Assembly (NCBI GenBank): GCA_947478315.1 | Contig: CANJWF010000001.1 | Span: 1 to 35,892, forward strand | Direction of reading: 5' to 3' | Source: Sphingobacteriaceae bacterium | Lineage (GTDB): Bacteria > Bacteroidota > Bacteroidia > Sphingobacteriales > Sphingobacteriaceae | DNA length: 35,892 nucleotides | Part shown: piece after piece, positions 563 to 30,681 of the stretch | How positions within the stretch are numbered: the stretch's first letter is position 1 | How the letters are laid out: the number at the start of each line of letters is the position of its first letter | Notes under the pieces: generated by a model | Seen by the model: only the letters and a program-made list of their open reading frames with translations | The model's database searches: none | What the model was told of the DNA's origin: nothing | Program-made: the position numbers and the translations under genes

Positions 563-644
563 AAATTAGATTGTAACTTAATTTTCAGAGCACTCGAGGA
601 GAAGGTACCTGTCCTGAAAAATTGAACTAAGATATTCAATATAT

Positions 645-706
645 CCATTGAAAAACAACCTACGAAGCACGCATGAATACCATTGAGGAACAAACACTAA
701 TGAAAA
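645..706 (+). repeat. Degenerate fragment of the R150 repeat family upstream of lipB
   Basis: CCATTGAAAAACAACC and CATGAATACCATTGAGGAACAAACACTAATGAAAAA match the internal and terminal modules of R150 (compare CATGAATACCATGAAAGATAAAACACTAATGAA in the GH2 copy). Confidence 0.5.
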
Positions 707-714
707 ATTAACAG

Positions 715-1422
715 ATGAAAAATAAAAAAGTTGTATTTGAAGACTGGGGTCTAATAGATTATCAAGAGGCATGGACGAAACAAGAAACAATTTTTGCAGA
801 AACAGTTCAAATAAAAACGACGAATAGAGAAAGTTCTACACCTCAAGCTACCGATAATTATTTAATTTTTTGTGAGCACCCGCATGTGTACACTCTAGGA
901 AAAAGTGGACTCATGGACCATCTATTATTAGACGAGAAAACATTAACAAGTAAAAAAGCCTCTTTTTACAAAATTAATCGAGGTGGCGACATCACGTACC
1001 ACGGACCAGGACAAATTGTAGGCTATCCTATTTTAGATTTAGAAAATTTTTTCACCGACATTCACCAATATCTTCGTCTTTTAGAAGAGGCTATTATTTT
1101 AACTTTAGCAGACTATGGCATAAAAAGTGGTAGAATTTCGGGTATGACAGGTGTTTGGCTTGACGGAGACAACAAACAAAAGGCTAGAAAAATTTGTGCA
1201 ATGGGCGTACGCTGTAGCCGTTGGGTAACGATGCATGGTTTTGCACTAAATATCAACACTCAACTAGATTATTTTAATCACATTGTCCCCTGTGGCATTA
1301 GCGACAAAGCAGTTACTTCACTATCGACAGAGTTAAAAAAAACAGTCGATATAGATGAAGTTAAAAAAATATTAAAAAGACACCTTATCGAACTTTTTGA
1401 AATGGACTCTATTGCAGATTAA
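715..1422 (+). CDS. lipB: Octanoyl/lipoyl-[ACP]:protein transferase
   Basis: 235 aa. NRGGDITYHGPGQIVGYPILDL and KICAMGVRCSRWVTMHGFALN are classic LipB motifs, including the catalytic Lys/Cys region. Confidence 0.9.
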   Translation: MKNKKVVFEDWGLIDYQEAWTKQETIFAETVQIKTTNRESSTPQATDNYLIFCEHPHVYTLGKSGLMDHLLLDEKTLTSKKASFYKINRGGDITYHGPGQIVGYPILDLENFFTDIHQYLRLLEEAIILTLADYGIKSGRISGMTGVWLDGDNKQKARKICAMGVRCSRWVTMHGFALNINTQLDYFNHIVPCGISDKAVTSLSTELKKTVDIDEVKKILKRHLIELFEMDSIAD

Positions 1423-3580: not shown

Positions 3581-4267
3581 ATGCCCAATTTAAAGTTCAT
3601 CTATTGTTTCTTTATACTCGTAGGAATCGTTTGCTCAACCGTACTATTATTAGATGCTTGTACAAAAGAGAGTATACAATCCGAAAAAACCATTTATTTT
3701 CAAAACGATGTCTTGCCCATTTTTCAATCCAATTGCACGCAAGCAGGATGTCATAACGCCAAAGATAAAGCAGAAGGTTATGATTTAACAAGCTATGAAA
3801 GCATCATGGCATCTAAAAAAAGTAAAGGCATTAAACCTGGAGATTATAAAAATAGTAGTATCTATGAATCCTTAGTGACAGGAGGACCTGACTTGATGCC
3901 TGCAAACCCATACAACCCACTTTCTGATGCACAAATCACTACCATAGCCCTTTGGATTAAACAAGGAGCACTCAACAACTCTACCACTACAAACGTCGAT
4001 TTAAATAACGTTACCTACACCCTCTCTGTTAAACCCATTTTAGACACCTATTGTAAAGGCTGTCACTCTTCGAGCAATGCAGGAGGAAATATTTCTTATG
4101 AAGACTACACCAATACACAAGTAACCGCGAATAATGGCAAACTATTGGGTAGCATCCAGCAATTATCAACAAACTATAAAGCAATGCCGCAAGGAGGTAA
4201 TAAACTTTCAGATAACAACATCGCCATTATTCAAAAATGGATTAGTAATGGCAGCCCGAACAACTAA
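3581..4267 (+). CDS. Lipoprotein with two heme-binding-type domains (one CX4CH and one CXXCH motif)
   Basis: Signal peptide with lipobox (LLLDAC). Internal duplication: FQNDVLPIFQSNCTQAGCHN and VKPILDTYCKGCHSS. Resembles PSCyt/Haem_bd-type c-type heme domains. Paralogue of the next gene. Confidence 0.6.
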   Translation: MPNLKFIYCFFILVGIVCSTVLLLDACTKESIQSEKTIYFQNDVLPIFQSNCTQAGCHNAKDKAEGYDLTSYESIMASKKSKGIKPGDYKNSSIYESLVTGGPDLMPANPYNPLSDAQITTIALWIKQGALNNSTTTNVDLNNVTYTLSVKPILDTYCKGCHSSSNAGGNISYEDYTNTQVTANNGKLLGSIQQLSTNYKAMPQGGNKLSDNNIAIIQKWISNGSPNN

Positions 4268-4281
4268 ACAACAATCATAAT

Positions 4282-4962
4282 ATGTCCATTAAAAAAGTTA
4301 AGACCCAATTACTTTTTCTTTCACTCATCACGTTAAGCATATATAGCTGTAAAAAAGATAGCGATAGTAGTACAACCATACCCGATGCAACCATTTCAAA
4401 CACAACTGTCTATTTTCAAAACGATGTATTACCTATTTTTCAATCTAGTTGTGCTATGAATGGTTGTCACAATAGTACCAATAAAGTAGATGGATACGAC
4501 CTATCAAACTACGATGCCATTTTATCTAAAGGAATTACCAAAGGAAATTATAAGTCTAGTAAAATTTATACAGAAATAGCCAATGGAGCTATGCCTCCCC
4601 GCGGGTACACCGCTATAACGTCCACTCAACTCAACTCCATCGCATCTTGGATACAACAGGGAGCACTCAATAACATCACTAATACTACTTCCGACTTAAA
4701 CAATATTACCTATTCTCAATCTGTTAAACCCATTTTAGACACCTATTGTAAAGGATGCCATTCTTCAAGCCTAGCCAGTGGAGGCATCTCTTATCAAGAT
4801 TACGCTAACACCCAAATAACTGCAAACAATGGTAAACTATTAGGTAGCATTCAACAACTATCAGCCAACTATAAAGCAATGCCACAAGGAGGGAACAAAC
4901 TTTCCGACAACACCATTGCCATTATTCAAAAATGGATTAACAATGGTAGCCCCAACAATTAA
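4282..4962 (+). CDS. Lipoprotein with two heme-binding-type domains (paralogue of 3581-4267)
   Basis: Lipobox SIYSC. FQNDVLPIFQSSCAMNGCHN and VKPILDTYCKGCHSS. The C-terminal ~80 aa are nearly identical in protein sequence to the upstream gene. Confidence 0.6.
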   Translation: MSIKKVKTQLLFLSLITLSIYSCKKDSDSSTTIPDATISNTTVYFQNDVLPIFQSSCAMNGCHNSTNKVDGYDLSNYDAILSKGITKGNYKSSKIYTEIANGAMPPRGYTAITSTQLNSIASWIQQGALNNITNTTSDLNNITYSQSVKPILDTYCKGCHSSSLASGGISYQDYANTQITANNGKLLGSIQQLSANYKAMPQGGNKLSDNTIAIIQKWINNGSPNN

Positions 4963-5620: not shown

Positions 5621-5655
5621 CATGAATACGATTGATAAACAACCACAAATTAATT
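5621..5655 (+). repeat. Degenerate R150-family unit downstream of the YceI gene
   Basis: CATGAATACGATTGATAAACAACCACAAATTAATT resembles the ~35-bp CATGAATACCATTGA..AACAAACAC unit. Confidence 0.35.
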
Positions 5656-5752
5656 AACAACTGAAAATAACAACTAGTATTTTTTGCCAATCATCAAGCC
5701 TCATCGTTTTAAACCAACTGCTTCACCTACCTAAGTATTAAACTCTACGCCC

Positions 5753-8328: not shown

Positions 8329-8400
8329 CATGCAACCTTTTTGACAAAGATCTGTTTATAGGCGCTCGTATTAAACCAAAAAAAATCAAATTATATTCTA

Positions 8401-9366
8401 ATGAATACTACTAAAAATGGAGTAGAAGAATTAGATGCTTTATGTGCATCTTACCAATCCGTAAAATCAGAAATAAGTAAAATTATTATCGGTCAGGACG
8501 ATGTTGTGAAAGCCGTTTTAATGGCAATTTTCAGCAATGGTCATTGCCTATTAGTCGGTGTACCTGGTTTAGCAAAAACTTTACTCATACAAACACTCGC
8601 ACAAGCACTCGATTTAAGTTTCAATCGCGTACAATTTACGCCTGATTTAATGCCATCGGACATTTTAGGAGCAGAGGTATTTGGTGACGACCGTAATTTT
8701 AAATTCATTAAAGGTCCAGTTTTTGCCAATATTGTTCTAGCCGATGAAATAAATCGTACACCCCCTAAAACACAATCTGCACTTTTAGAAGCCATGCAAG
8801 AACGAGCAGTAACCGTTGCTGGCGTATCTCACCGCTTGCCAGCACCTTTTTTCGTGCTAGCCACACAAAATCCTATTGAACAAGAGGGTACATACCCTTT
8901 ACCCGAGGCGCAATTAGACCGGTTTATGTTCAACATTGTGTTAGAATACCCTACTTTAGAACAAGAGATAGCTGTTGTAAAATCGACAACTGGCACTCAT
9001 CCAGTAAGCGTACAAAAAATAATGGGAGCTCAAGAGATTTTAAAATTCCAGCAACTCATTCGAGGTTTACCCATTACCGATCATGTATTAGAATACGCCG
9101 TTCGACTAGCTACGAAAACACGGCCTAATACTCCCTTAGCAACCTTAGAAGTCAATAAATTTTTGAATTGGGGAGCAGGACCACGAGCCTCACAACAATT
9201 AGTATTAGGCGCCAAATGTCATGCCGCCATTCAAGGAAAATATGCTCCCGACGTGGAGGATGTGCAAGCTGTTGCCATTAATGTCTTACGTCACCGTATT
9301 GTCCGAAACTACAAAGCCGAAGCCGAAGGAATGACAGTAGAAAAAATTATTACCAATTTGTTTTAA
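8401..9366 (+). CDS. MoxR-family AAA+ ATPase
   Basis: Walker A GVPGLAKT, Walker B LADEINR, QNPIEQEGTYPLPEAQLDRF. Typical ~320 aa MoxR/RavA-like protein. Confidence 0.9.
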   Translation: MNTTKNGVEELDALCASYQSVKSEISKIIIGQDDVVKAVLMAIFSNGHCLLVGVPGLAKTLLIQTLAQALDLSFNRVQFTPDLMPSDILGAEVFGDDRNFKFIKGPVFANIVLADEINRTPPKTQSALLEAMQERAVTVAGVSHRLPAPFFVLATQNPIEQEGTYPLPEAQLDRFMFNIVLEYPTLEQEIAVVKSTTGTHPVSVQKIMGAQEILKFQQLIRGLPITDHVLEYAVRLATKTRPNTPLATLEVNKFLNWGAGPRASQQLVLGAKCHAAIQGKYAPDVEDVQAVAINVLRHRIVRNYKAEAEGMTVEKIITNLF

Positions 9367-11327: not shown

Positions 11328-14087
11328 TTAATCATTTACACAAATAACTGTAAGATTTTTCTTTACTTCCGCCAATGATAAAGATGTTTTAAGCCAAATT
11401 TTAACCTCTTGTTGCGGAAGTAAATCAAAGAAATTATCACTAAAATGATAACTAGCAGTGTTACCCATTTTTAAGCAAACATTTTTTGCCAAAGTTTTGC
11501 TCTTTAGTTTAATAACAATTCGGTCATTCTCACTCAACACATCGGTATCAATAACAGTTTTAGGTAATAAGAGAGCCTTAGGAGACGTAAAATAAAGTAT
11601 ATTTTGGCTTACTTGTTCATTATCCACCCACAATTCAGCCGTTAAAAAACACTTTTTTTTATCCATATCTTTTTTTAAAAAAGAAGTTTTAGCCACGAAC
11701 ACCGTAAAGTTCATCGCTGGATTAATATCATATAGCGCATCTTTTTGCCATAATACTTTACCTTCTACATCTATCAATTTTAAATATAATGTACCCTCTA
11801 CAGGAATAAGTTTATCAGAAACAAGGCTAATTTTTATCGTATCATTTTGACAAATTGCATGGACTAACAATGGCGAATAGGCCTTTTTAACAAAATATTG
11901 AGCAGCTTTCCATCGCTCATGGCTATCAATCGTTGAATGACTAATAGTAAATGTATAATCATTAAAATGCGAGTAAATTATACCCGTGGTAAATGGTTGT
12001 TTTCTCCGATTATATTCGATAAATGTCTTCAAGCGTTCGGCCTGCAATAGCTGACTAAAATAACTGAGCCTTTGTGTGTCAACGCTATCTATTATCGGAT
12101 AATATTGGCGAATATCGGCCAATAACAAGGTCATATAAGATTGTTGCCATTGGTGTATATCCCTATCAAACACAATACTATCTGGCATAGATAAAGATGA
12201 AAAAAAGGGAGAATTAGAACCTGAAACATCGCTACTTTTCAACATTGCATCTTCATCTGAAAACAAATTATTTTTTGAAGAAGAATTCTTAGCAGCATTA
12301 TCATGCCTCTGTGAAAGAATATGACTCACGGATATTTCATCTGTTAATTTGTTTTTTAATGGTGATGAAGAACCCATAACAACATTATCATTCTTCTTTG
12401 TGAGCGTATTGCTCATGGGTGTTTCATTTCCTTCTATAAACGGTCGCTTTTTTATTACAGCTTCTTCGAGAGCGCGCGCCAAAGGAGATTCGGTACCATG
12501 CAAACACAATCGACCAGAATCCAAATTATGAATCATTCCCGGAATAACAACATCAAATAACGTCTGATTAGATGGGAATAGCTTGTGTTTAAGTTGCTGG
12601 TACTGCACATACGATGAATCAACCGTTTCATTAGAACAAAATTTGTTTTTCAATGGATTAATGGAATGCCCAAACGTATTATTCATTAGTGTTTTATCTT
12701 TCATGGTATTCATGAATGCAAAGCATTTCATCTCGGTTGGTGAGTACTCGCTCATGAGCATTTCATCAGCAGCAGAATTGTAGGCAACACCGTTAACACT
12801 CCACATCGCAATAGAAGGATGATTTCGCAAGCGTTTTATTTGATAGTCGAGTTCTTTACGAACGTTATTAACAAACAAGGTATCTGTTGGATAATTTGTA
12901 TCGGTAAACATTAAATCTTGCCACACCAAAATACCATTTTCATTTGCCAAACGATAAAAATCATTAGATTCATATACGCCCCCACCCCAAACTCTGATGA
13001 TATTAAAATTGGACGTTACCATATCTGCAAACAAACGCCTGTATTTGTCCTTATCCGCATGCGGTGTAAGTATATCCGTAGGCAGCCAAACAGCTCCCTT
13101 TAAAAATATCTTCTTCCCATTTAATTTTACCTGAAGTTGCCCTTGTTGTTCCAATACTTCAAGTGTTCTTAAGCCTATTCTTTCGGAGCGAATATCCTCT
13201 TCATTAGTAGTGGTAACCTTAAAATTCAAACTATATACATAAGGAGTACCCAAATCATGAGTCCACCAACGCTCTGGATTCGCAATTTCGAAAGGAATTT
13301 CAATAACTTGCACCCCCTCTTCAAGGTCAACTTCTTTTAAAATAGAGTTTTGAATAGACAAAGTTGCATGCTGTGCGTAAGTAGACTCCACCTCTATTTT
13401 TGCCAACAGTTCTGCCTTAGTATCCGACAGTGCCAATTGTTGAAGATGGATATTAAGAAGACGAACATCATTCCACATCAATAATCGAATAGGCTTCCAA
13501 ATACCTACCGATACTTTACTCGAAACAAAGGGAGATGCAAATTGATAAGCGGCCTTCCTCAAGCAAGGGCTCAAAGCGCACAACGATAGGCTATCTACTG
13601 AAGAGGTATTTGCGGAAAATGTACGATAAGCCTGATTCATCACCTGATTTAAAGCTCCAAATACAATTCTCAATCGGTTAGTACCTTTTTTTAAAAAAGG
13701 CTTCAATCGCATTTCAACGGGGACAAACATATTGTCGTTATGTAGAATGAGACTATCATTCAGAAATACATCCGCGTAAGTATCTAAACCTTCAAATAAA
13801 ATATTGATATGCTCGTATTTAAGATGGTAACTACTAATCGTAAAAGTAGTTTCATATTCCCAAGCACTTTGAGTAATTGAAGCAGCGAGGTTATTAGGCT
13901 CCGAAGAATCTTGAATTTTTTTATTCAGTAACAAATCAGTATACAGGTTGCCAGGAACCTGAGCAGCAAGCCAATTAACATCCCCAACTTGCCTAAACAA
14001 CCAATTGGTTTTTAACTCGGTTTTATAAAGGGCGTAAATTTGTGTAGAGAAAATGTAAAATGTAGATAATAATAAGTATTTCCTCAT
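11328..14087 (-). CDS. Glycoside hydrolase family 2 beta-mannosidase homologue carrying two in-frame repeat insertions; catalytic residues apparently lost
   Basis: Signal peptide. N-terminal WLAAQVPGNLYTDLL and FEGLDTYADVFLND, and TIM-barrel RVWGGGVYESNDFYRLANENGILVWQDLMF, match GH2 beta-mannosidases. First ATG is at 14087 (MRKYLLL). See findings for the insertions and the missing glutamates. Confidence 0.8.
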   Translation of the reverse strand: MRKYLLLSTFYIFSTQIYALYKTELKTNWLFRQVGDVNWLAAQVPGNLYTDLLLNKKIQDSSEPNNLAASITQSAWEYETTFTISSYHLKYEHINILFEGLDTYADVFLNDSLILHNDNMFVPVEMRLKPFLKKGTNRLRIVFGALNQVMNQAYRTFSANTSSVDSLSLCALSPCLRKAAYQFASPFVSSKVSVGIWKPIRLLMWNDVRLLNIHLQQLALSDTKAELLAKIEVESTYAQHATLSIQNSILKEVDLEEGVQVIEIPFEIANPERWWTHDLGTPYVYSLNFKVTTTNEEDIRSERIGLRTLEVLEQQGQLQVKLNGKKIFLKGAVWLPTDILTPHADKDKYRRLFADMVTSNFNIIRVWGGGVYESNDFYRLANENGILVWQDLMFTDTNYPTDTLFVNNVRKELDYQIKRLRNHPSIAMWSVNGVAYNSAADEMLMSEYSPTEMKCFAFMNTMKDKTLMNNTFGHSINPLKNKFCSNETVDSSYVQYQQLKHKLFPSNQTLFDVVIPGMIHNLDSGRLCLHGTESPLARALEEAVIKKRPFIEGNETPMSNTLTKKNDNVVMGSSSPLKNKLTDEISVSHILSQRHDNAAKNSSSKNNLFSDEDAMLKSSDVSGSNSPFFSSLSMPDSIVFDRDIHQWQQSYMTLLLADIRQYYPIIDSVDTQRLSYFSQLLQAERLKTFIEYNRRKQPFTTGIIYSHFNDYTFTISHSTIDSHERWKAAQYFVKKAYSPLLVHAICQNDTIKISLVSDKLIPVEGTLYLKLIDVEGKVLWQKDALYDINPAMNFTVFVAKTSFLKKDMDKKKCFLTAELWVDNEQVSQNILYFTSPKALLLPKTVIDTDVLSENDRIVIKLKSKTLAKNVCLKMGNTASYHFSDNFFDLLPQQEVKIWLKTSLSLAEVKKNLTVICVND
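12335..12428 (+). mobile_element. R93 repeat (MITE-like, internally palindromic), copy inside the GH2 CDS
   Basis: About 94% identical by eye to 19346-19438 (5 substitutions, 1 indel). ATGAAGAACCCAT and ATGGGTGTTTCAT form imperfect inverted arms. Confidence 0.75.
12626..12767 (-). mobile_element. R150 modular repeat, copy inside the GH2 CDS
   Basis: Its reverse complement shares the ends GATGAAATGCTCATGAG..CACCAACC and GGGCATTCCATTA.TCCATTGAAAAACAAATT..TTCTAATGAAA with the copies at 25534-25686 and 25735-25849. Confidence 0.75.
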
Positions 14088-14486
14088 TAGCAACAACGAT
14101 TATTAACGGATATTGAACGTGAAATATGACCATAAAGTTTTAAAAGGTGTATCTTAAAGTAAGCGTAAAGCATGCTCAGTTTAAGCACAAAACATAGACC
14201 TATAAAATAGTACTACACTAGTCTGTTTTGCAATTCAATGTAAATATTTACACAGTAAACTACTGTAAATAAACTACTTGACAAGCTCAATTATTTTTCC
14301 GTTATTGCACCCCTATAGCGGTTCGTCCATATTATGGCGACACACGAATCTTTTTAATTTTAAAATACGTATTTTGTAACGAGAATTTTACACCCCAACA
14401 CGTTTAACATAACACTTAGGTTGAATGTTTTTCAATCTAAGATTATATCAAATAATTTTTTATTCATTTACCTATTACCTAATACT

Positions 14487-15204: not shown

Positions 15205-15645
15205 TATTTAGTCAGTCCTAAAAAGCACTTAAAAAGCTATATGATAGGTCATTAAATTGAAAAAGTTAACAAAAAATCTGCAAGATTTTAGATAAAACAC
15301 GTAGCAATCTTGCAGAAAAACCTTTCCGCTGTGCTTTGCGAAATGCAACAGCACCAAACATTCATAACCGTTTTTTGTCGCCTTATATTTGTCGGCAAAC
15401 ACCCAATTGCTAAAGCGCTGATTTTCAAAGACAAATATTCAGCGACGAGTTTTTCGTTGCTACTTTTTTTTACTCACAGAGGAGTAAGCCATCATAGGTG
15501 TTCGTGAATGCTTCGCATTTCGCGGATACAACGAAGATAATCAGCGCTGCGCAGTCATGAGTTCCATGCAAAACAAACATTCACGAATAAAAAAAGTAGA
15601 GATAAGTGCGATAGACTTTTTGAGGGTCGGCTATTTAAAGCACTA
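15205..15645 (+). mobile_element. IR-A element, copy A1 (~440 bp MITE-like, terminal inverted repeats)
   Basis: Ends CTATTTAGTCAGTCCTAAAAAG and CTTTTTGAGGGTCGGCTATTTAAAG are inverted. Internal 11-bp hairpin TCTGCAAGATT/AATCTTGCAGA. Matches 16767-17093 in reverse complement, except for about 110-120 extra bp at ~15470-15590. Confidence 0.7.
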
Positions 15646-16053
15646 CTCAACAAACTGCTGCAACCAGTCCATCGCCTCTTCACGAGATAGAAACGCCTGC
15701 ACCGGAAAAGGAGTATAACGACGACTAATGGATAGAAAAAAAGTAGTTGCCAAATACTGCGGATAGCGATGTACCAAAATAGCCGAAGCAGACACATCCA
15801 CCATACTTTCGGGAAGTACGTAGTACTTCATCGCCTTTACGTCAATGTGACAAGCTTGATTGATATCGACAAATAGTGGGGTAGCATGCCTCTTTGTGAG
15901 TAATTGACGGTCTGCCGCGGTTAGCAATGCAATGGGGAAGGTAATGCGCTTTACCTCATCCTTAAAACGTTGAAACAATATGCCACCTTCGAGCTGATAG
16001 GTTAAATAGGCATTTTCGGCAAACAAGCTGGCATCGTTAGCATCGGGCATCAT
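15643..16053 (-). CDS. Small STAS/SpoIIAA-like protein (paralogue 1)
   Basis: About 136 aa, paralogous to 16312-16722 (shared GGI.FQ.FKD, IDV.AMKY.VLP, DV.ASAI, RR..PFPV, WLQQF). Resembles the STAS-like N-terminal modules of Bacteroidota sensor proteins, by recollection only. ATG at 16053 or 16050. Confidence 0.45.
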   Translation of the reverse strand: MMPDANDASLFAENAYLTYQLEGGILFQRFKDEVKRITFPIALLTAADRQLLTKRHATPLFVDINQACHIDVKAMKYYVLPESMVDVSASAILVHRYPQYLATTFFLSISRRYTPFPVQAFLSREEAMDWLQQFVE

Positions 16054-16088
16054 TACATACAATTTAACTAACTGGGAATAGACCTTTC

Positions 16089-16290
16089 ATGCGTAATTTG
16101 GGTTAAAAGATACCCAATACGGCAATTTTGGCAAATAGGTCGTTAAAAAAGCTGTGCTGGGTTATCCTGAACTCGATTCAGAATCTATTAGATTGCGGAG
16201 CAAGTCCGCAATGACCGCTCTTTTTAGAAACCGCTAAGAACTTTATTGCCCCTCTGCCCTTTTTATAGAATTTGAACCCAAATTCGCATT
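16089..16290 (+). mobile_element. IR-B element, copy B1 (~200 bp MITE-like)
   Basis: Terminal inverted repeats ATGCGTAATTTGGGTT and AACCCAAATTCGCAT. Internal hairpin ATTGCGGA-GCAAGT-TCCGCAAT. The reverse complement of 17138-17340 is about 90+% identical by eye. Confidence 0.7.
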
Positions 16291-16311: not shown

Positions 16312-16722
16312 TTACATAAACTGCTGTAACCACAGCACGCCTTCGCGTCTCGATTTTACCACCTCTACGGGAAAAGGTATTTGACGGCGATAAAACCGAA
16401 GAAAAAATTTGGCAACCGCATATTGCAAATAGCTATCAATACAGATAGCCGAAGCCAACACATCTTGGGTACTTGCCGGCAATACAAAATATTTCATAGC
16501 AGCAACATCTATACGCTTAGAACTACTATAACTTACATCAACCAACAAAAGCACAGGTTTTTTTTGAGTGAACGATTGTCTTCCATTCGTAATCTCTACA
16601 GCCATATCCACATTAATTTCCTTAAACCCACTATCCTTAAATACCTGAAAGACGATGCCACCATCAATCCAATATTGAGCGTAATCATTTTCGTAGAAAG
16701 GGGTATCCGTATTTGCATCCAT
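16312..16722 (-). CDS. Small STAS/SpoIIAA-like protein (paralogue 2)
   Basis: 136 aa; see paralogue 1. The antisense ORF at 16381-16749 is rejected. Confidence 0.45.
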   Translation of the reverse strand: MDANTDTPFYENDYAQYWIDGGIVFQVFKDSGFKEINVDMAVEITNGRQSFTQKKPVLLLVDVSYSSSKRIDVAAMKYFVLPASTQDVLASAICIDSYLQYAVAKFFLRFYRRQIPFPVEVVKSRREGVLWLQQFM

Positions 16723-16766: not shown

Positions 16767-17093
16767 TATTTAGTCGACCCTCAAAAGTCCATCGCACTTA
16801 TCTTTTCTTTTTTCTCCGCGAAAAAAGAAACAAAAAAGCTCGTCGCTGAATATTTGTCTTTGTAAGTCAGTGATTTTGCAATTTGGTGCTTACCGACAAA
16901 TATAAGGCGACAGGGGACGGTTATGAATGGCTGTATCTGTTGCAGCTCGCCATTATTGGTCGGGATAGGTTTTTCTGCAAGTTTTTAACGTGTTTTATCC
17001 AAAATCTTGCAGATTTTTTACCAAATTTTTCATTTTAATAACCTGTTATATACATTATTAAGTACTTTTTGAGGACCGACTATTTAAATAGCT
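16767..17093 (-). mobile_element. IR-A element, copy A2 (inverted relative to A1)
   Basis: The reverse complement aligns with 15205-15470 and 15590-15645, with the same termini and the same TCTGCAAGATT hairpin. Confidence 0.7.
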
Positions 17094-17137: not shown

Positions 17138-17340
17138 AATGCGAATAATTGGTTCAAATTCTATAAAAAGGGCAGAGGTGCAATAAAGTTCTTAGCGGTT
17201 TCTACAAAGAGCGGTCATTGCGGACTTGCTCCGCAATCTAATAGATCCTGAATCGAGCTCAGGATAACCCAGCACAGCTTTTTTAACGACCTATTTGCTG
17301 AAATTACCGTATTGGGCATCTTTTAACCCAAATTACGCAT
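17138..17340 (-). mobile_element. IR-B element, copy B2 (inverted relative to B1)
   Basis: The reverse complement aligns end to end with 16089-16290. Confidence 0.7.
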
Positions 17341-19057: not shown

Positions 19058-19351
19058 TTAAAGTTTTAAATCTTTCGGGTTACGACGGTTATCCCAAAAA
19101 AATAAAAGATATATCCCGTCATCATTAGGATAATAGTAAACGGAAATTATATTGGTTAAAACAGCACGTCTAACATTTTGATATTTATCTGATTCTTGAA
19201 AAGAAAATGGATTATTACGAATGTGTGTAAGTAGTTCTTGTGTTCTTTCGATGAATTTTTGATACTCTCTATTAGTCCAATTTTTTATCAAGTAATCTAT
19301 TAAATCGTTAAACGAACGTTCTGCATTAATAGTCCAAAAAATATCTTTCAT
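19058..19351 (-). CDS. Type II toxin, ParE/RelE family
   Basis: 97 aa. Its layout (N-terminal helical hairpin, then the C-terminal LLFFWDNRRNPKDL) matches Bacteroidota plasmid-stabilisation ParE-like toxins. Confidence 0.7.
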   Translation of the reverse strand: MKDIFWTINAERSFNDLIDYLIKNWTNREYQKFIERTQELLTHIRNNPFSFQESDKYQNVRRAVLTNIISVYYYPNDDGIYLLFFWDNRRNPKDLKL

Positions 19352-19438
19352 CTGTTAATTTGTTTTTTATGGTGATGAAGAACCCATAACAACATTATCA
19401 TCCTCCTTTGTGAGGATAGTGCTCATGGGTGTTTCATT
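19346..19438 (+). mobile_element. R93 repeat, copy between the antitoxin and toxin genes
   Basis: Near-identical to 12335-12428. It spans the whole antitoxin-toxin spacer and overlaps the toxin ATG (19349-19351) and the antitoxin stop (19434-19436). Confidence 0.75.
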
Positions 19439-25515: not shown

Positions 25516-25686
25516 AAAAAGAAAGTATTTTTAGATGAAATGCTCATGAGTGAGTTTTCACCAACCAATAATGATACCGAAGATTCATGAAGTCCCTTAT
25601 GGAAAAGGAAACACAACTGAATACATCGAAGATGCATGAGTGCCATTGAAAGATAAACACAAACGAATAATTTTGTTCTAATGAAA
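25516..25686 (+). mobile_element. R150 modular repeat, intergenic copy 1
   Basis: Begins AAAAAGAAAGTATTTTTAGATGAAATGCTCATGAGTGAGTTTTCACCAACC and ends CCATTGAAAGATAAACACAAACGAATAATTTTGTTCTAATGAAA. The ends match the GH2 copy and copy 2, but the middle module differs. Confidence 0.7.
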
Positions 25687-25734
25687 CCGACATGCACAGC
25701 CTACACAAAAGGGCATAAAAACGTTCATGACCAT

Positions 25735-25849
25735 TAAAAAACAAACTATTTTTATATGAAATGCCCATGAGTGGGTGCTCACCAACCGATGATGAATACG
25801 TTTGGGCATTCCATTAGTCCATTGAAAAACAAATTATATTCTAATGAAA
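25735..25849 (+). mobile_element. R150 modular repeat, intergenic copy 2 (short form), overlapping the lnt start codon
   Basis: AAAAAACAAACTATTTTTATATGAAATGCCCATGAGTGGGTGCTCACCAACCGATGATGAATACGTTTGGGCATTCCATTAGTCCATTGAAAAACAAATTATATTCTAATGAAAA. The final ATG is the lnt start. Confidence 0.7.
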
Positions 25850-27487
25850 AAATATTTATATCTATCGATTACCAGTGGAATATTGCTGTGGTTAGGATGG
25901 CCCCCTACACGTTTTACTACACCACTACTATTTATCGGATTTGTACCATTACTATCGGTAACAGAGCAATTAGCCCCTACTCAAAATACTAATAAAAAAA
26001 ATGGCATATATATATTCACATTCATTGGATTAAGTTTTTTACTGTGGAATATTGGAAGCATTTATTGGGTTTACTACGCCATACGAGTAGGCACTGGTAA
26101 TATTGGAGGTTTATTCGTTTCACTAATACCTTGGGGGCTGGGCACCCTACTCATGACTGTAAGTTTTTGGGGCTATTTTCAACTTAAAAAAAACTTAAAC
26201 AAATGGCTAGCGTACATAGGACTGTTATGTTTATGGACAAGCTACGAATACCTACATCAAACTTGGGACTTAGCTTTCCCCTGGATGACTCTAGGGAATG
26301 GATTAGCGGAATGGCCTCAATTAATACAATGGTATAGCTATACGGGAGTGTATGGAGGCACTATATGGATTTTGATTTGTAACATTTTATTATTTGAATG
26401 CTATACTAATATCCGAAAACATAACGTCAAACAACATAAATTTATAATCATTAGCAGCATACTATGTTTCCTCATACCCATATCCATATCGTTAACGATG
26501 TACTATAGTTATGAGGAAACGGAAAATCCTTGCCATGTGGTAGTCATTCAGCCTAATATAGACCCCTATCAAAAATACAATGGGTTAAGTATATCAGAAC
26601 AAGAGAAACGTCTAATAAAACTCAGCGATTCATTAGGTATATCCAACACCGAATTTTTTATTTGGCCAGAAACAGCCATTGCTGAATATGTCGATGAAGA
26701 AAATATTCGTCAATACCCCATCTATCAACAGTTAAAACAATTTATATCTCACTATAAAAATGGGAATATACTCAGTGGAATAGAAAGCTATAAAACTTAC
26801 GGTTTTGCAAAAACCCCTAGCGCAGATTTTATAGCTCAACATAACAGATATATAGACAATTTTAACGCCGCAACTTTAATTGACAACTCTGATAAAATTC
26901 AATTTTATCACAAATCAATTTTAGTACCAGGAGTCGAAAAATTTCCTTTTAAAAACAGTTTAACTCTATTTAAGCCCCTATTTGCAAAATTAGGTGGAGC
27001 TACGGGAAGCTATGGAAGCCAACTAGAACCTTCCGTTTTTTACAGCCAAAGTGGCATCGGAGTGGCGCCTATTATTTGTTACGAATCTATTTGGGGTAAC
27101 TATGTAGCTCAGTACATGCAAAAAGAGGCACAGTTCATTGCTATTATTACCAATGATGCTTGGTGGGGAAATACATCAGGAAAAGACCAGCACTTGGCAT
27201 ACGCACGTCTAAGAGCTATAGAAACACGAAGATGGGTTGCCCGTTCAGCAAATACTGGCATATCCGCATTCATTAATCAACGTGGCGATGTTGTTCAAAA
27301 AACCAACTGGTGGAAAATAGAAGGGTTACGTCAAACTATTAATTTAAATACCGAAAAAACTTTTTACGTTCAACATGGCGACTGGTTAATCATGCCACTC
27401 ATCTGCACAGAAATATGTTTAATAATCTGCTCATTTGCAATAGGTATTAAACGCAAGAAATTATCTTGCGTTATATCGAAAAAATAA
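25844..27487 (+). CDS. lnt: Apolipoprotein N-acyltransferase
   Basis: Multi-TM N-terminal half plus a CN-hydrolase domain with FFIWPE, ICYESIW (catalytic Cys) and ITNDAWWG. Confidence 0.85.
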   Translation: MKKYLYLSITSGILLWLGWPPTRFTTPLLFIGFVPLLSVTEQLAPTQNTNKKNGIYIFTFIGLSFLLWNIGSIYWVYYAIRVGTGNIGGLFVSLIPWGLGTLLMTVSFWGYFQLKKNLNKWLAYIGLLCLWTSYEYLHQTWDLAFPWMTLGNGLAEWPQLIQWYSYTGVYGGTIWILICNILLFECYTNIRKHNVKQHKFIIISSILCFLIPISISLTMYYSYEETENPCHVVVIQPNIDPYQKYNGLSISEQEKRLIKLSDSLGISNTEFFIWPETAIAEYVDEENIRQYPIYQQLKQFISHYKNGNILSGIESYKTYGFAKTPSADFIAQHNRYIDNFNAATLIDNSDKIQFYHKSILVPGVEKFPFKNSLTLFKPLFAKLGGATGSYGSQLEPSVFYSQSGIGVAPIICYESIWGNYVAQYMQKEAQFIAIITNDAWWGNTSGKDQHLAYARLRAIETRRWVARSANTGISAFINQRGDVVQKTNWWKIEGLRQTINLNTEKTFYVQHGDWLIMPLICTEICLIICSFAIGIKRKKLSCVISKK

Positions 27488-27495
27488 TACTTTTG
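27488..27495 (+). promoter_or_regulatory. Bacteroidota -7 box (TACTTTTG) for the riboswitch-nrdBA transcript
   Basis: Exact TAnnTTTG match immediately after the lnt stop and ~35 nt upstream of the riboswitch core. Confidence 0.35.
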
Positions 27496-27529
27496 TCGTA
27501 CAACGTGGTTGTGTATATATTTTTATACA

Positions 27530-27705
27530 GAGTATAACACATTAAAAGGGAATTCGGTGTAAATCCGAAGCTATCCCCGTAGCTGTAAGTTCATTATCTA
27601 TTTAGCATCCCTCGCCACTGTCCATATCATAGGACGGGAAGGCCGTTAAATAAAGAACAAGCCAGAAGACCTGCCAGTAACTAACACCAATTTCATTTAG
27701 CTTTC
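27530..27705 (+). promoter_or_regulatory. Cobalamin (B12) riboswitch
   Basis: AAAAGGGAATTCGGTGTAAATCCGAAGCTATCCCCGTAGCTGTAAG, GCCACTG, GGGAAGGCC and the B12 box AGCCAGAAGACCTGCC (27660-27675) follow the Cobalamin riboswitch consensus. Confidence 0.85.
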
Positions 27706-27929: not shown

Positions 27930-28904
27930 ATGGCATCCTCTATTTTAACTCCACGATTAGCTTTTAAACCTTTTAAATACCAATGGGCCTATGAATATTG
28001 GTTTAAACAACAAAATGCACATTGGTTACATACCGAAATCAACATGCAAAAAGATCTTAAAGATTGGTTAGAGGAATTATCAAATGCCGAAAAAAATGTA
28101 ATCGGAAACATACTAAAAGGATTTGCCCAAACAGAAACACATGTAGAAGATTATTGGACGCAATACGTTACACATTGGTTTCCTATACCCGAAATTAAAA
28201 TGATGGCTACCGCTTTCGGCAACATGGAAACCATTCACGCAACGGCTTATTCCTATCTTAATGACACGTTAGGCTTAGATGATTTTCAGGCTTTTATGAG
28301 TGATACAGCCACCATGAATAAATTAGATGTACTTATCAACGTCAATAATAATGATTCGTCTATCGAACATATCGGACGCTCCATCGCATTATTTTCAGCA
28401 TGTGCAGAAGGCATACAATTGTTCAGTTCATTCGCGGTATTGCTTTCATTTAGGAAAAAAAATTTACTAACAGGAATAGGTCAACAAATGATATTCTCCA
28501 TTAGAGACGAAAGTTTACATAGCGAAGCAGGATGTAAGTTATTTCGAACACTTATCGAAGAAAATTCTGGCATTTTTACGGAATCATTCAAAAAAAGCAT
28601 TTACGAAGGCGTCGACTTAGCACTTCAACTAGAATTCAATTATATCGATAAAATATTTGAATTAGGCGATTTAGAAAGTATCACAAAATCACAACTCAAA
28701 ACATTTATGCATGATCGAGCAAATCGCAAACTACAAGAATTACTATTGTCGCCCGCATATACTGTAGATAATGCCCTCATACAAGAAATGGAATGGTTTT
28801 ATCTAATGGTTTCAGGAGAACAACAAACCGATTTTTTCGCCAATCGAGAAACAGGATATGCTAAACCTAATGACGATTGGAATAATATAGAAGACCTATT
28901 TTGA
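27930..28904 (+). CDS. nrdB: Class I ribonucleotide reductase small (beta) subunit
   Basis: Ferritin-like di-metal motifs METIHATAYSY (ExxH plus Tyr at +7) and IRDESLHSE (ExxH); 324 aa. Confidence 0.9.
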   Translation: MASSILTPRLAFKPFKYQWAYEYWFKQQNAHWLHTEINMQKDLKDWLEELSNAEKNVIGNILKGFAQTETHVEDYWTQYVTHWFPIPEIKMMATAFGNMETIHATAYSYLNDTLGLDDFQAFMSDTATMNKLDVLINVNNNDSSIEHIGRSIALFSACAEGIQLFSSFAVLLSFRKKNLLTGIGQQMIFSIRDESLHSEAGCKLFRTLIEENSGIFTESFKKSIYEGVDLALQLEFNYIDKIFELGDLESITKSQLKTFMHDRANRKLQELLLSPAYTVDNALIQEMEWFYLMVSGEQQTDFFANRETGYAKPNDDWNNIEDLF

Positions 28905-28953: not shown

Positions 28954-30681
28954 ATGGAAACACACGTATTAGCGAAAAAAAAAGGTTGGAAATCTGGAAT
29001 TGACTTTCCAGAATGGGGTAACAATGCCCTCTATCTAACTACTATACAAGGAGGCTATCTACAAACCCATGAAACACCTAAAGACGCTTATAATCGTTTA
29101 GCGACAACAGCTGCCCACCACCTCCAAGATGCAACTTTAGCCAAGGCATTTTTTAACATATTTTGGAATGGATGGCTCATCCCAGCAACACCCGTTATGT
29201 CTAATATGGGAACAGAAAGAGGATTACCCATTTCATGTTTTGCAGGATTAATCGGAGACGATATGTATGAAATTTATCGCAAAAATTTAGAAATGGCCAT
29301 GTTATCAAAACATGGAGGAGGTACAGCCTATGATTTTTCTGCAATTCGACCAATTGGTTCAGCCATAAAGGCAGGACTCAATGGTAGCTCAGATGGAGTT
29401 ATACCCTTTATAAAATCCTTCGATTCAACCATCCTTGCGGCAAAACAAGGTTCCATGAGAAGAGGAGCCGTAGCCATTTATCTTAATGCAGAACACGAAG
29501 AATACCGTTCTTTTTTAGAAATAAGAGAACCCAAAGGAGATATCAATAGGCAAGCACATAATGTACATCAAGGTAGTATTTTTTCCGATAATTTCATGGA
29601 ACAAGTAGTCTCAAAACATGGAAAAGAACGTGAATTATGGTTAGAAACCATCAAAAAAAGAGTTAAAACAGGCGAACCTTACTGCTTTTTTATCGATAAC
29701 GCTAACAAGCAGTTACCTGATTTTTTTCAGAAAAATAATCTACGAGTAAAACATTCCAACTTATGTTCCGAAATTATGCTACCAACAGATGACAAACATA
29801 CTTTAGTTTGTTGCCTATCTTCCCTTAATCTACTCAAATGGGATGAATGGAAAGATACTAACACTGTACAATTGAGTATTTTATTTTTGGATGCCGTCAT
29901 CACCGAATTTCTAAATCGGTCAACAACAATTATGGGTATTGAAGATGCGCATAAATTCGCCACAAAATCACGTGCATTAGGCTTAGGTGCATTAGGATGG
30001 CACTCTCTATTACAAAGCAAACTCATTCCATTTATTAGTCTAGAATCTAATGCATTAACCCGAATCATATTCGGACACATTCAACAAGAAGCAGAAAAGG
30101 CCACGCTATATCTAGCACAAAAATTTGGAGAGTCTGAATGGTGTAAAAATACTGGCAGAAGAAACTTAACCTGTTTGGCAATAGCACCTAATAGAAGCAG
30201 TTCAAAATTAGCAGGAGGATTATCTCAAGGGGTAGAACCTATAGCTGCTAACGTATATATGGACGACGATGCCAAAGGGATACACATTCGAAGAAACACA
30301 TTTTTAGAAAATTTCTTAGAAAAAAAGGGACTAAATACACCTCAAGTTTGGGATCAGATTGCAGATGATAAAGGTAGTGTATTGCACCTAAAAGGTTTAA
30401 GTAAAGAGGAAAAAGATATTTTTCTTACATTCAAAGAAATCAATCAATTAGAATTAGTAAAGCAAGCTGCAATCAGACAAACTTATTTAGACCAAGGACA
30501 ATCTATTAACCTCGCATTTTATCAAGATGCCCCCGCAAGATTCATTAATCAAGTTCATCTAGAAGCGTGGCATTCAGGTTTAAAATCTTTATACTACCTA
30601 CGTTCAGAATCCATACTACGAGCAGATACCAAAATCATTCAGAGAGATTTATACTCAGAATGCCTATTGTGTGAAGGATGA
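28954..30681 (+). CDS. nrdA: Class I ribonucleotide reductase large (alpha) subunit, short form without an ATP-cone
   Basis: PISCFAG, the active-site NLCSEI, and the C-terminal redox cysteines CLLC. 575 aa, with no N-terminal ATP-cone sequence. Confidence 0.85.
   Translation: METHVLAKKKGWKSGIDFPEWGNNALYLTTIQGGYLQTHETPKDAYNRLATTAAHHLQDATLAKAFFNIFWNGWLIPATPVMSNMGTERGLPISCFAGLIGDDMYEIYRKNLEMAMLSKHGGGTAYDFSAIRPIGSAIKAGLNGSSDGVIPFIKSFDSTILAAKQGSMRRGAVAIYLNAEHEEYRSFLEIREPKGDINRQAHNVHQGSIFSDNFMEQVVSKHGKERELWLETIKKRVKTGEPYCFFIDNANKQLPDFFQKNNLRVKHSNLCSEIMLPTDDKHTLVCCLSSLNLLKWDEWKDTNTVQLSILFLDAVITEFLNRSTTIMGIEDAHKFATKSRALGLGALGWHSLLQSKLIPFISLESNALTRIIFGHIQQEAEKATLYLAQKFGESEWCKNTGRRNLTCLAIAPNRSSSKLAGGLSQGVEPIAANVYMDDDAKGIHIRRNTFLENFLEKKGLNTPQVWDQIADDKGSVLHLKGLSKEEKDIFLTFKEINQLELVKQAAIRQTYLDQGQSINLAFYQDAPARFINQVHLEAWHSGLKSLYYLRSESILRADTKIIQRDLYSECLLCEG

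Follow-up and report, generated by a model that had tools for sequence, protein, structure and literature searches.

Within a 35,892-nt stretch of a Sphingobacteriaceae genome (GenBank assembly GCA_947478315.1, contig CANJWF010000001.1, positions 1 to 35,892; hereafter the window), a long open reading frame (ORF) encoding a GH2 beta-mannosidase homologue is interrupted by segments that recur elsewhere in the same DNA. These segments are copies of a modular, non-coding repeat family whose units are delimited by the hexamer ATGAAA, or at minimum by ATGAA. The three copies in the GH2 gene are clean in-frame insertions, which is an exceptional location for the family. The family itself, being ATGAAA-delimited, associated with start codons, marked by a covarying fold and cross-phylum, is in our view a more interesting result than the GH2 case that led to it.

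Repeat copies in the window

The similarities among the repeats of the window (G+C content 35.5%) are real and far above chance. An initial annotation, made from the letters of the sequence, had described two repeats inside the GH2 ORF. The first, 12335-12428, was said to be near-identical to intergenic 19346-19438, and self-comparison returned the same 5 substitutions and 1 indel across the 93-nt unit; with its flanks the pair aligns over 109 nt at 90% identity (E = 1e-30). The second, 12626-12767, was described as the reverse complement of a modular repeat upstream of lnt. This also held: 25789-25849 is the reverse complement of 12626-12686 (61 nt, 92%, E = 9e-17), and 12733-12767 is similar to 25534-25566 and 25756-25789 at 88-91% identity. 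Two degenerate units had been listed as well, of which the one at 667-708 was supported (81% identity, E = 5e-6) and the one at 5621-5654 gave only a weak match (E = 0.76; covariance-model E = 0.35). Sensitive self-comparison raised the number of units in the GH2 gene from two to three by adding A2 (12251-12340), a degenerate copy in tandem to unit A1 (67% identity, E = 6e-8). In total, a covariance model recognised 7 clear and 3 weak units in the 36-kb window (Table 1).

Unit architecture

On the sense strand, the first hexamer of every unit is ATGAAA and the last is ATGAA(A/G/T), with one hexamer common to tandem neighbours. The conserved core of 36 nt consists of ATGAAA-YRY-YCA-TGA, a hairpin of the form TGAG(nn)...(nn)CTCA followed by CAC, and a second ATGAAA-like hexamer. 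Its 5' end, ATG-AAA-YRY-YCA-TGA, reads as a four-codon mini-ORF with the stop codon located within the hairpin. The second hexamer was found at +35 to +39 in 85 of the 115 pattern matches listed from the genome scan described below, compared to 4.5% of random windows. Some cores occur alone and sit directly on gene starts; at one such locus (L066) the second hexamer begins MKINKISVIGAGTMGRG.... Longer units have extra modules beyond the second hexamer, the last of which ends in an initiation region appropriate to the host, followed by [A/G]TGAAA. Unit length ranges from 64 to ~260 nt, and the variable middle often contains GC-rich palindromes.

Modules can also be nested. Unit B of the GH2 gene is an lnt-type unit with a 45-nt module inserted at an internal ATGAA, and it carries six ATGAA motifs in 141 nt, a density of 42 per kb compared to 2.1 per kb for the window. 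The term MITE-like (miniature inverted-repeat transposable element) used in the initial annotation fits these repeats as small, dispersed, non-coding copies and fails on their ends, because the window units have no terminal inverted repeats (8 or fewer of 20 positions match between unit ends). Imperfect TGAAA..TTTCA complementarity of the ends was seen only in units from outside the Bacteroidota.

Separately, we observed a ~24-nt hairpin module at the same internal position of some units of Algoriphagus aquaeductus (L012, L069, L072, L079) and Alkalitalea saponilacus (L073). Its sequence is CTCCCGAT-GAAA-GATCGGGA in Algoriphagus and TCCCGAT-ACA-TCGGGA in Alkalitalea, and it looks like a second, smaller nested repeat common to the two genera.

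Many units end on start codons

Among 74 terminal units with a recognisable 3' end, there are 29 (39%) whose terminal hexamer itself provides the start codon of an ORF of 100 codons or more; an ORF was accepted only with an in-frame stop shortly upstream. The background frequency is much lower, with 7.8% of all [A/G]TGAA sites of the same loci falling on starts (binomial p = 6e-14). The N-termini that follow the units are credible and include signal peptides, lipoproteins, trigger factor, cofactor-independent phosphoglycerate mutase and lnt. Terminal hexamers serve as the starts of lnt (25844) and a ParE toxin gene (19351) in the window, where each of the six unit-bearing places is co-oriented with its host gene or with the gene downstream. 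Outside the units, ATGAAA occurs 54 times in the window; 3 of these sites are gene starts and 22 lie within ORFs in the sense register xAT-GAA-A. None of these 22 is occupied, and the only occupied internal sites are the three in the GH2 gene.

The unit at the ParE gene lies between the members of a toxin-antitoxin pair. The TGA stop of the antitoxin-like ORF falls within the 5' ATGAAA of the unit, and the ParE start coincides with the 3' ATGAAA. This arrangement would be the expected outcome of insertion into an original ATGA stop/start overlap. Four further environmental contigs carry the unit in identical form. With all five population copies occupied, no empty site was found at this locus.

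Initiation signals and RNA fold

Judged from their sequences, the 3' ends of the units carry translation-initiation signals appropriate to the host. Outside Brocadia and the Bacteroidota, 26 of 32 units have a Shine-Dalgarno (SD)-like purine motif at a distance of 5-16 nt ahead of the 3' start. The motif was found in 0/5 Brocadia and 0/10 Bacteroidota units, which are A-rich at this position instead. Bacteroidota use little SD pairing.

We examined the folding of 18 Bacteroidota-type units with RNAalifold, which unaided returned the core hairpin (H1) and a helix, P2, in which CAUnnn pairs with the nnnAUG of the terminal start. When a long-range helix, P1, was included (P1+H1+P2), 87.7% of cells were paired compared to 27-42% in slid controls; because the structure was derived from the same sequences, this comparison is biased in favour of the fold, but the pairs with compensatory change are independent of that bias. 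There are seven such pairs, and the covariation score of 0.240 (vs 0.133) was reached by 0 of 500 shuffles. At the centre of the fold is an invariant TTCCAT, whose TT pairs with the last AA of the 5' hexamer and whose CAT pairs with the ATG of the 3' hexamer. The presence of G-U pairs indicates that the sense strand is the structured strand. Outside the Bacteroidota, the 5' TGAAA can pair with a TTTCA located just before the terminal start.

Distribution of the family

A scan of one genome per species with the pattern ATGAAAYRYYCATGAGY-N5-8-YTCAC found at least 102 stretches carrying it. Roughly 10 of the 115 pattern matches listed look like chance occurrences in GC-rich coding sequence, and the remainder have the unit architecture. 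In the Bacteroidota, units are present in Algoriphagus aquaeductus (at least 13 loci), Alkalitalea saponilacus (at least 11 loci) and metagenome-assembled genomes (MAGs) of Chitinophagaceae and Bacteroidales; the covariance model gave 39 matches in 266 kb of Bacteroidota loci. Units were also found in Candidatus (Ca.) Brocadia species (Planctomycetota), in Nitrospirota, and in Syntrophaceae, Smithella and other Thermodesulfobacteriota. Many of the matches come from isolates and complete genomes, such as those of Algoriphagus aquaeductus, Alkalitalea saponilacus and Ca. Brocadia pituitae, the last a complete genome. Based on these sequence matches, the repeat family spans at least four bacterial phyla, and the novelty specific to a Bacteroidota lineage that the initial annotation had suggested does not hold.

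A spurious ORF of 73 aa, in reality a translated A-type unit, led to a related environmental contig (L109/L110). Besides an A-type unit, the contig has one of B-type, 189 nt long, whose end coincides with the ATG of a PEBP-family gene. The further genomic copies on which the initial annotation had staked its repeat interpretation therefore exist, in this contig and at more than 100 loci elsewhere.

Searches in other directions were negative. The genome-scan pattern had 0 matches in 2.9 million viral contigs, a metagenome scan with the window-type 5' pattern had 0 matches, and BLAST against plasmids with the unit of a Planctomycetes MAG (L018) and with the lnt-upstream array gave no match. Rfam returned nothing on the units, either in the window (at E up to 1) or in 16 related loci. 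No published description was found by keyword or by literal sequence, subscription journals being outside the coverage of this search.

Near-identical units of 180-220 nt also occur in groundwater MAGs assigned to very different phyla (L007, Nanoarchaeia; L029, Daviesbacteria; L018, L032 and L040). This spread may reflect mis-binned contigs, and the phylum count is best rested on isolates and complete genomes.

The GH2 gene and its three insertions

The GH2 ORF spans 11328-14096, with an ATG at 14087 and the stop at 11328, and carries the Pfam set PF22666, PF00703, PF17786 and PF17753, which is the domain architecture of beta-mannosidases. The initial annotation had reported that the frame stays open through both of its repeats, with the peptides it quoted; we find the same, and the frame is open through the third unit as well. 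All three units are sense-oriented, and their lengths of 135, 87 and 84 nt are multiples of 3 without stops. They are absent from homologous proteins, first in an alignment of 8 beta-mannosidase homologues and then in all 71 aligned, the best of which is ~41% identical. The intact protein aligns with the solved Bacteroides enzyme BtMan2A in two stretches (aa 25-433 and 658-899), and in silico removal of the 306 nt (45 + 29 + 28 codons) yields an 817-aa protein that gives a single BtMan2A alignment (25-797 vs 11-816). The segments are clean in-frame insertions. Homologous segments at the same positions in unrelated GH2 proteins would have refuted the interpretation of the initial annotation, and none of the homologues aligned has them.

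The protein has also lost most motifs of its active site. In the alignment to BtMan2A, the acid/base Glu of NNE is replaced by Val434 (NGV) and WDW by SPF; the nucleophile Glu of FMSEFG (SE[YF]G) stands opposite KSSDVS or SSLS, that is, opposite Asp or Ser; and the GDxHYWGVW motif is lost. Retaining GH2 enzymes need two catalytic glutamates, and since both are gone the GH2 protein cannot be a beta-mannosidase. Among 222 near-invariant columns (at least 95% in the 71 homologues), 137 are retained and 38% lost. The catalytic middle retains 13 of 48 such residues, and the N-terminal, Ig, first-barrel-half and C-terminal regions retain 74-82%. An AlphaFold2 model built from 72 sequences is confident for aa 1-430 and 650-919 and has no beta strand between 390 and 703.

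These losses raise the possibility that the gene is a young pseudogene, in which the insertions would be neutral debris and the frame would be open by luck or recency. Besides the missing catalytic residues and motifs, this reading could draw on the concentration of all three insertions in one gene while the 22 other xAT-GAA-A sites in ORFs of the window are empty. Half of the barrel is unmodelled: the predicted local distance difference test (pLDDT) score of aa 431-648 is mostly 28-58, although values of 64-82 are reached in some blocks of 10 residues in the native sequence that separates the inserts. The GH2 ORF, whether started at ATG or TTG, also has no called-gene record in the contig's collection, where lnt and parE are recorded. 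These last two observations also count against a translated protein. On the other side, all three units are stop-free multiples of 3, unlike their intergenic relatives, which are 86 or 88 nt long or have stops in the GH2-type frame, and the model reaches pLDDT of 80-96 in the N- and C-terminal domains. Furthermore, simulated unconstrained substitution that changed 10% of residues introduced ~7 stops, and 0 of 200 runs stayed open, whereas the GH2 ORF has no stop in 919 codons in spite of an 18-26% loss of near-invariant residues even in its non-catalytic domains. This contrast indicates that the ORF is probably not an old pseudogene. Its frame appears to be still under selection, and a young pseudogene strikes us as rather unlikely; the sequence favours a translated, non-catalytic GH2-like protein as the probable product.

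The initial annotation compared the insertions to Rickettsia palindromic elements (RPEs) and proposed a structure prediction to see whether they map to surface loops. Taken in full, the comparison would mean a family restricted to one lineage, with a habit of entering functional genes in frame and tolerated there as surface loops. For the GH2 gene taken by itself the comparison is partly apt, with three in-frame, stop-free copies in one ORF that is apparently kept open by selection. A second in-frame copy was found in a radical-SAM ORF of a Syntrophaceae MAG (MNZP01; L102), where a 132-nt unit (minus strand, position 1728 of the reverse-complemented locus) lies just before the C-terminal Cys-rich motif and adds ETFMSHWLTKEDENK...KKVFSGE. 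Only one sense frame, xAT-GAA-A, passes the 5' end of a unit, as ATG-AAA stops after four codons and xxA-TGA at once, and the units in both host genes are read in this frame. As a general description of the family, the RPE-like reading is unlikely. These two ORFs are the only in-frame hosts among ~105 genuine units, and the insert peptides matched no additional host among the 5.8 and 1.84 billion proteins searched. The lengths and in-frame stops of the intergenic copies imply a family not built for translation, the catalytic residues of the GH2 host are gone, and the family is not confined to one lineage. The structure prediction also gave no footing for the surface-loop idea, since the insert region has pLDDT below 50 and its placement cannot be claimed. 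In-frame residence in genes is the exception for the ATGAAA repeat family.

We picture two or three insertion events in the GH2 gene at internal xAT-GAA-A sites. The insertions would have survived because their lengths are multiples of 3 without a stop in that frame, and they would lie in the former active-site half, a region the protein may no longer need.

Origin of the units

We consider it probable, by a modest degree, that the units are mobile DNA of a non-autonomous kind with ATGAA(A) as its point of entry, and that selection then leaves mainly the copies at ATG-AAA starts, where a start codon is preserved. This interpretation derives from the direct repeats at both ends, the common hexamers in arrays and the nested insertion at an internal hexamer. 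Entry would be in one orientation. Many genes start with ATG-AAA (Met-Lys), and an element inserted there would rebuild the start codon together with initiation signals of its own, so that copies on start codons would be nearly harmless and could accumulate.

Translation might also be handed from the old start to the new one. Ribosomes from the old start would halt after four codons inside P1/H1, opening the adjacent P2 and relaying initiation to the new start. This relay is unsupported at present, and we put it forward as a speculative possibility, somewhat on the doubtful side. The broader proposal, for which we would claim a little under even chances, is that of a family of tiny, modular mobile elements, so far undescribed and spread across phyla, which insert at Met-Lys starts and are translationally self-masking, in the sense that the old frame would be stopped after four codons and the new start supplied with a host-matched initiation region. 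In this proposal, the old and new hexamers would be brought together by folded RNA or single-stranded DNA, and rare off-target insertions inside genes, such as the three in the GH2 gene, would add peptides to proteins.

Several observations weigh against these proposals. The 3' hexamers are often GTGAAA, ATGAAT or GTGAAG, and a strict 6-bp duplication is not demonstrated. The scan pattern itself imposed the 5' ATGAAA and the TGA stop, so that neither is an independent observation outside the window. Clustering of 757 flank ORFs from ~700 kb revealed ABC ATPases, kinases and similar genes, with no recurrent transposase or recombinase next to units, and no long autonomous copies were found among units without a nearby 3' end. 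Among the loci compared, no empty site was recovered for any insertion except by comparison with the distant GH2 homologues, so that duplication of the target and insertion beside a fixed one would look alike. An SD-like motif lies ahead of the 5' hexamer in 10 of 30 units from SD-using lineages compared to a 26% background (p = 0.23), and without such enrichment the feeding of the mini-ORF by the old ribosome-binding site is unproven. Finally, P1 is inconsistent outside the Bacteroidota, as judged by eye.

At one Algoriphagus aquaeductus locus (L074, 1400-3400) we noted another repeat family of ~260-370 nt with at least five copies. Two of these contain an ATGAAA unit and three do not, and the junctions are too diverged for a clean empty site.

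The fold suggests a different interpretation, that the units are primarily cis-acting 5'-leader RNAs, combining the mini-ORF with start-codon sequestration, that were copied from one gene to another without being transposable DNA as such. The strand-specific covarying structure with its G-U pairs and a CAUnnn-nnnAUG helix at the start codon is what such RNAs might have, and so are the constant co-orientation with the downstream gene and the host-fitting SD or A-rich region. Near-identical copies at unrelated loci before unrelated genes fit poorly with this, as do tandem arrays, nesting, and the presence of units within ORFs and between the genes of a toxin-antitoxin pair. The fold consists of short, AU-rich helices, with folding z-scores of the window units from -0.7 to -3.6, and no Rfam family matches. 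We judge a primary role as leader RNA to be unlikely.

More improbable still is movement by a HUH (Y1) transposase whose gene is present once, at some other place in the genome, which would make the units hairpin elements of the repetitive extragenic palindromic (REP)/REPIN or IS200/IS605 type. The 36-nt core is REP-sized and has a conserved hairpin near a fixed flanking sequence, and terminal inverted repeats are absent. IS200/IS605 targeting is insertion next to a fixed short sequence, which insertion beside a fixed penta- or hexanucleotide resembles, and the internal TTCCAT pairs with both terminal hexamers in a manner reminiscent of a guide sequence. Yet the 3' end lacks a second hairpin, the units are direct and not inverted, the ~700 kb of flanks contain no Y1 transposase or other recurrent gene, and orientation tracks genes and not obviously replication.

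The reverse line of descent, with the intergenic copies as fragments of the GH2 gene, has nothing beyond the shared sequence in its favour and is excluded, as neither the 71 GH2 homologues nor BtMan2A have the segments, and units occur in genomes and loci unrelated to GH2. Splice-site-like ends (GT..CAG) were considered and rejected, as the commonest units have GC and the hosts are bacterial; integron attC sites, group II introns, CRISPR and riboswitches were rejected on sequence features and the diversity of the downstream genes.

If the units are indeed mobile DNA that targets start codons and restores translation, they would represent a route by which near-neutral selfish DNA could persist in compact bacterial genomes. 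The family could then account for unexpected leaders and mis-annotated gene starts in many environmental genomes, and each lineage's version would be a natural stop-and-restart initiation cassette fitted to the local ribosome-binding rules. Conservation of the 36-nt core across phyla would imply a conserved partner, either an enzyme or the ribosome. The GH2 gene would illustrate, on a modest scale, how repeats can insert peptides into a protein turned non-enzyme.

Other features of the window

The units and their host or neighbouring genes are listed in Table 1.

Table 1. Repeat units and associated genes in the window.
Feature	Coordinates	Strand	Basis and remarks
GH2 beta-mannosidase homologue, 919 codons, signal-peptide-like N-terminus, catalytic residues lost	11328..14087	-	Pfam and BtMan2A alignment
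Unit B, composite, 135 nt between hexamers	12626..12766	-	45 codons, aa 441-485, frame xAT-GAA-A
Nested 45-nt module inside unit B at internal ATGAA; module ends in ATGAA	12687..12731	-	Comparison with 25756-25849 and L109 5634-5822
Unit A1, 87 nt hexamer-to-hexamer	12335..12427	-	29 codons, aa 554-582; covariance model 72 bits, E = 5.6e-13
Unit A2, degenerate tandem copy, 84 nt, 5' ATGAAA common with A1, ends in ATGAAG	12251..12340	-	28 codons, aa 583-610; weak covariance-model match
Intergenic A-type unit between antitoxin-like ORF and ParE toxin gene	19346..19437	-	Covariance model; start/stop overlap with hexamers
ParE-family toxin ORF, start on terminal ATGAAA of unit	19058..19351	-	Pfam PF05016
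First unit of lnt-upstream array, B-type with extra modules	25535..25687	+	Self-comparison, covariance model
Partial unit between two lnt-upstream units, hexamers common with both neighbours	25681..25761	+	E = 0.24, weak alone
Best-preserved unit; terminal ATGAAA 25844-25849 is the lnt start codon	25756..25849	+	Covariance model 82 bits; fold with P1 + P2; lnt ORF 25844-27487
Degenerate 3' module ending on start codon (8401) of MoxR-like ATPase	8330..8406	+	E = 0.29, weak
Degenerate modules ending on ATGAAA start (715) of lipoate-protein ligase-family (LplA/B) gene	634..720	+	Weak
Very degenerate module upstream of ORF 5753	5621..5666	+	Not significant alone

Three further regions of the window deserve mention. 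A cobalamin riboswitch (104 bits) is located at 27489-27692 (+), directly after lnt and upstream of the genes for the small (27930-28904) and large (28954-30681) subunits of ribonucleotide reductase. The large-subunit ORF (+) encodes only 575 aa, and the Pfam barrel domain aligns to it in three pieces; the ORF may be truncated or carry inserted segments. Between 15220 and 17340, nested long inverted repeats surround paralogous DUF7793 genes at 15643-16062 and 16312-16722 (both -). The repeat arms are 16089-16278 / 17151-17340 (190 nt, 96%), 15338-15454 / 16834-16950 and 15220-15327 / 16963-17070, and the region could be an inverted duplication or an invertible segment. Lastly, tandem paralogues at 3581-4267 and 4282-4962 (+) have 77% DNA identity over 300 nt, with cytochrome c domains in the first, the only one of the two that was scanned.

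Comparison with known systems

RPEs are small dispersed repeats of ~90-150 nt that form hairpins and can lie in frame within protein genes (PMC10969869). Besides RPEs, the small repeats known to insert in frame include ERIC, BOX, QMITE1 and Anabaena MITEs (PMC10969869), and the GH2 phenomenon is therefore of a known kind. The ATGAAA units are likewise small, hairpin-forming and dispersed, and can add a peptide in frame. RPEs, however, are confined to Rickettsia and frequently intragenic, whereas the ATGAAA family is cross-phylum and rarely intragenic, and its units usually sit on a start codon and end in ATGAA(A) direct repeats. The habitual in-frame insertion into many unrelated genes that characterises RPEs is not seen in the ATGAAA units. 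The host of the window units, to judge by the relatives of its GH2 protein, is Bacteroidota-like.

With REP, BIME and REPIN elements, the ATGAAA units have in common a hairpin core (36 nt), mosaic arrays, high copy number, a non-coding nature and the lack of terminal inverted repeats. The short imperfect palindrome at the core of REP elements has its counterpart in hairpin H1 with its compensatory changes. The difference lies in organisation and position: the ATGAAA units are direct, co-oriented with genes, bounded by ATGAAA and placed on start codons, while REP, BIME and REPIN elements occur at 3' ends or between convergent genes. Neither inverted REPIN-type pairs nor a RAYT gene was found, the tandem units being direct and the flanks without a recurrent gene.

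Bacterial MITEs such as Correia/NEMIS, ERIC, BOX and Nezha are also small and non-autonomous, may carry expression signals and occasionally form in-frame fusions. The numerous dispersed, small, non-coding copies are a trait the ATGAAA family has in common with them. Unlike MITEs, the window units lack terminal inverted repeats, the target hexamer is the same everywhere, and no parent insertion sequence was found in the flanks or among units without a nearby 3' end. ATGAA(A) stands at both unit ends, as a MITE target duplication would, but the 3' hexamers vary and no empty site was recovered.

Elements derived from IS200/IS605 resemble the ATGAAA units in having no inverted terminal repeats, a hairpin near the end, a fixed insertion sequence and internal bases complementary to the ends. 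They differ from them in that the ATGAAA units have one hairpin only, found in the 5' core and without a subterminal partner at the other end, TnpA/TnpB was not seen nearby, and orientation is tied to translation.

The last comparison is with leader-peptide or upstream-ORF coupling and with bypass elements, namely T4 gene 60 and the mitochondrial 'byp' elements. The resemblance lies in a very short ORF with its stop in a hairpin, in matching end sequences, in the SD before the downstream site and in a mobile insert that does not prevent expression of the host gene. The stop of the ATGAAA unit comes two codons after the repeated AAA and not directly after the take-off site as in bypass elements, and there is no evidence of bypassing; most ATGAAA copies would need only ordinary initiation at the new start.

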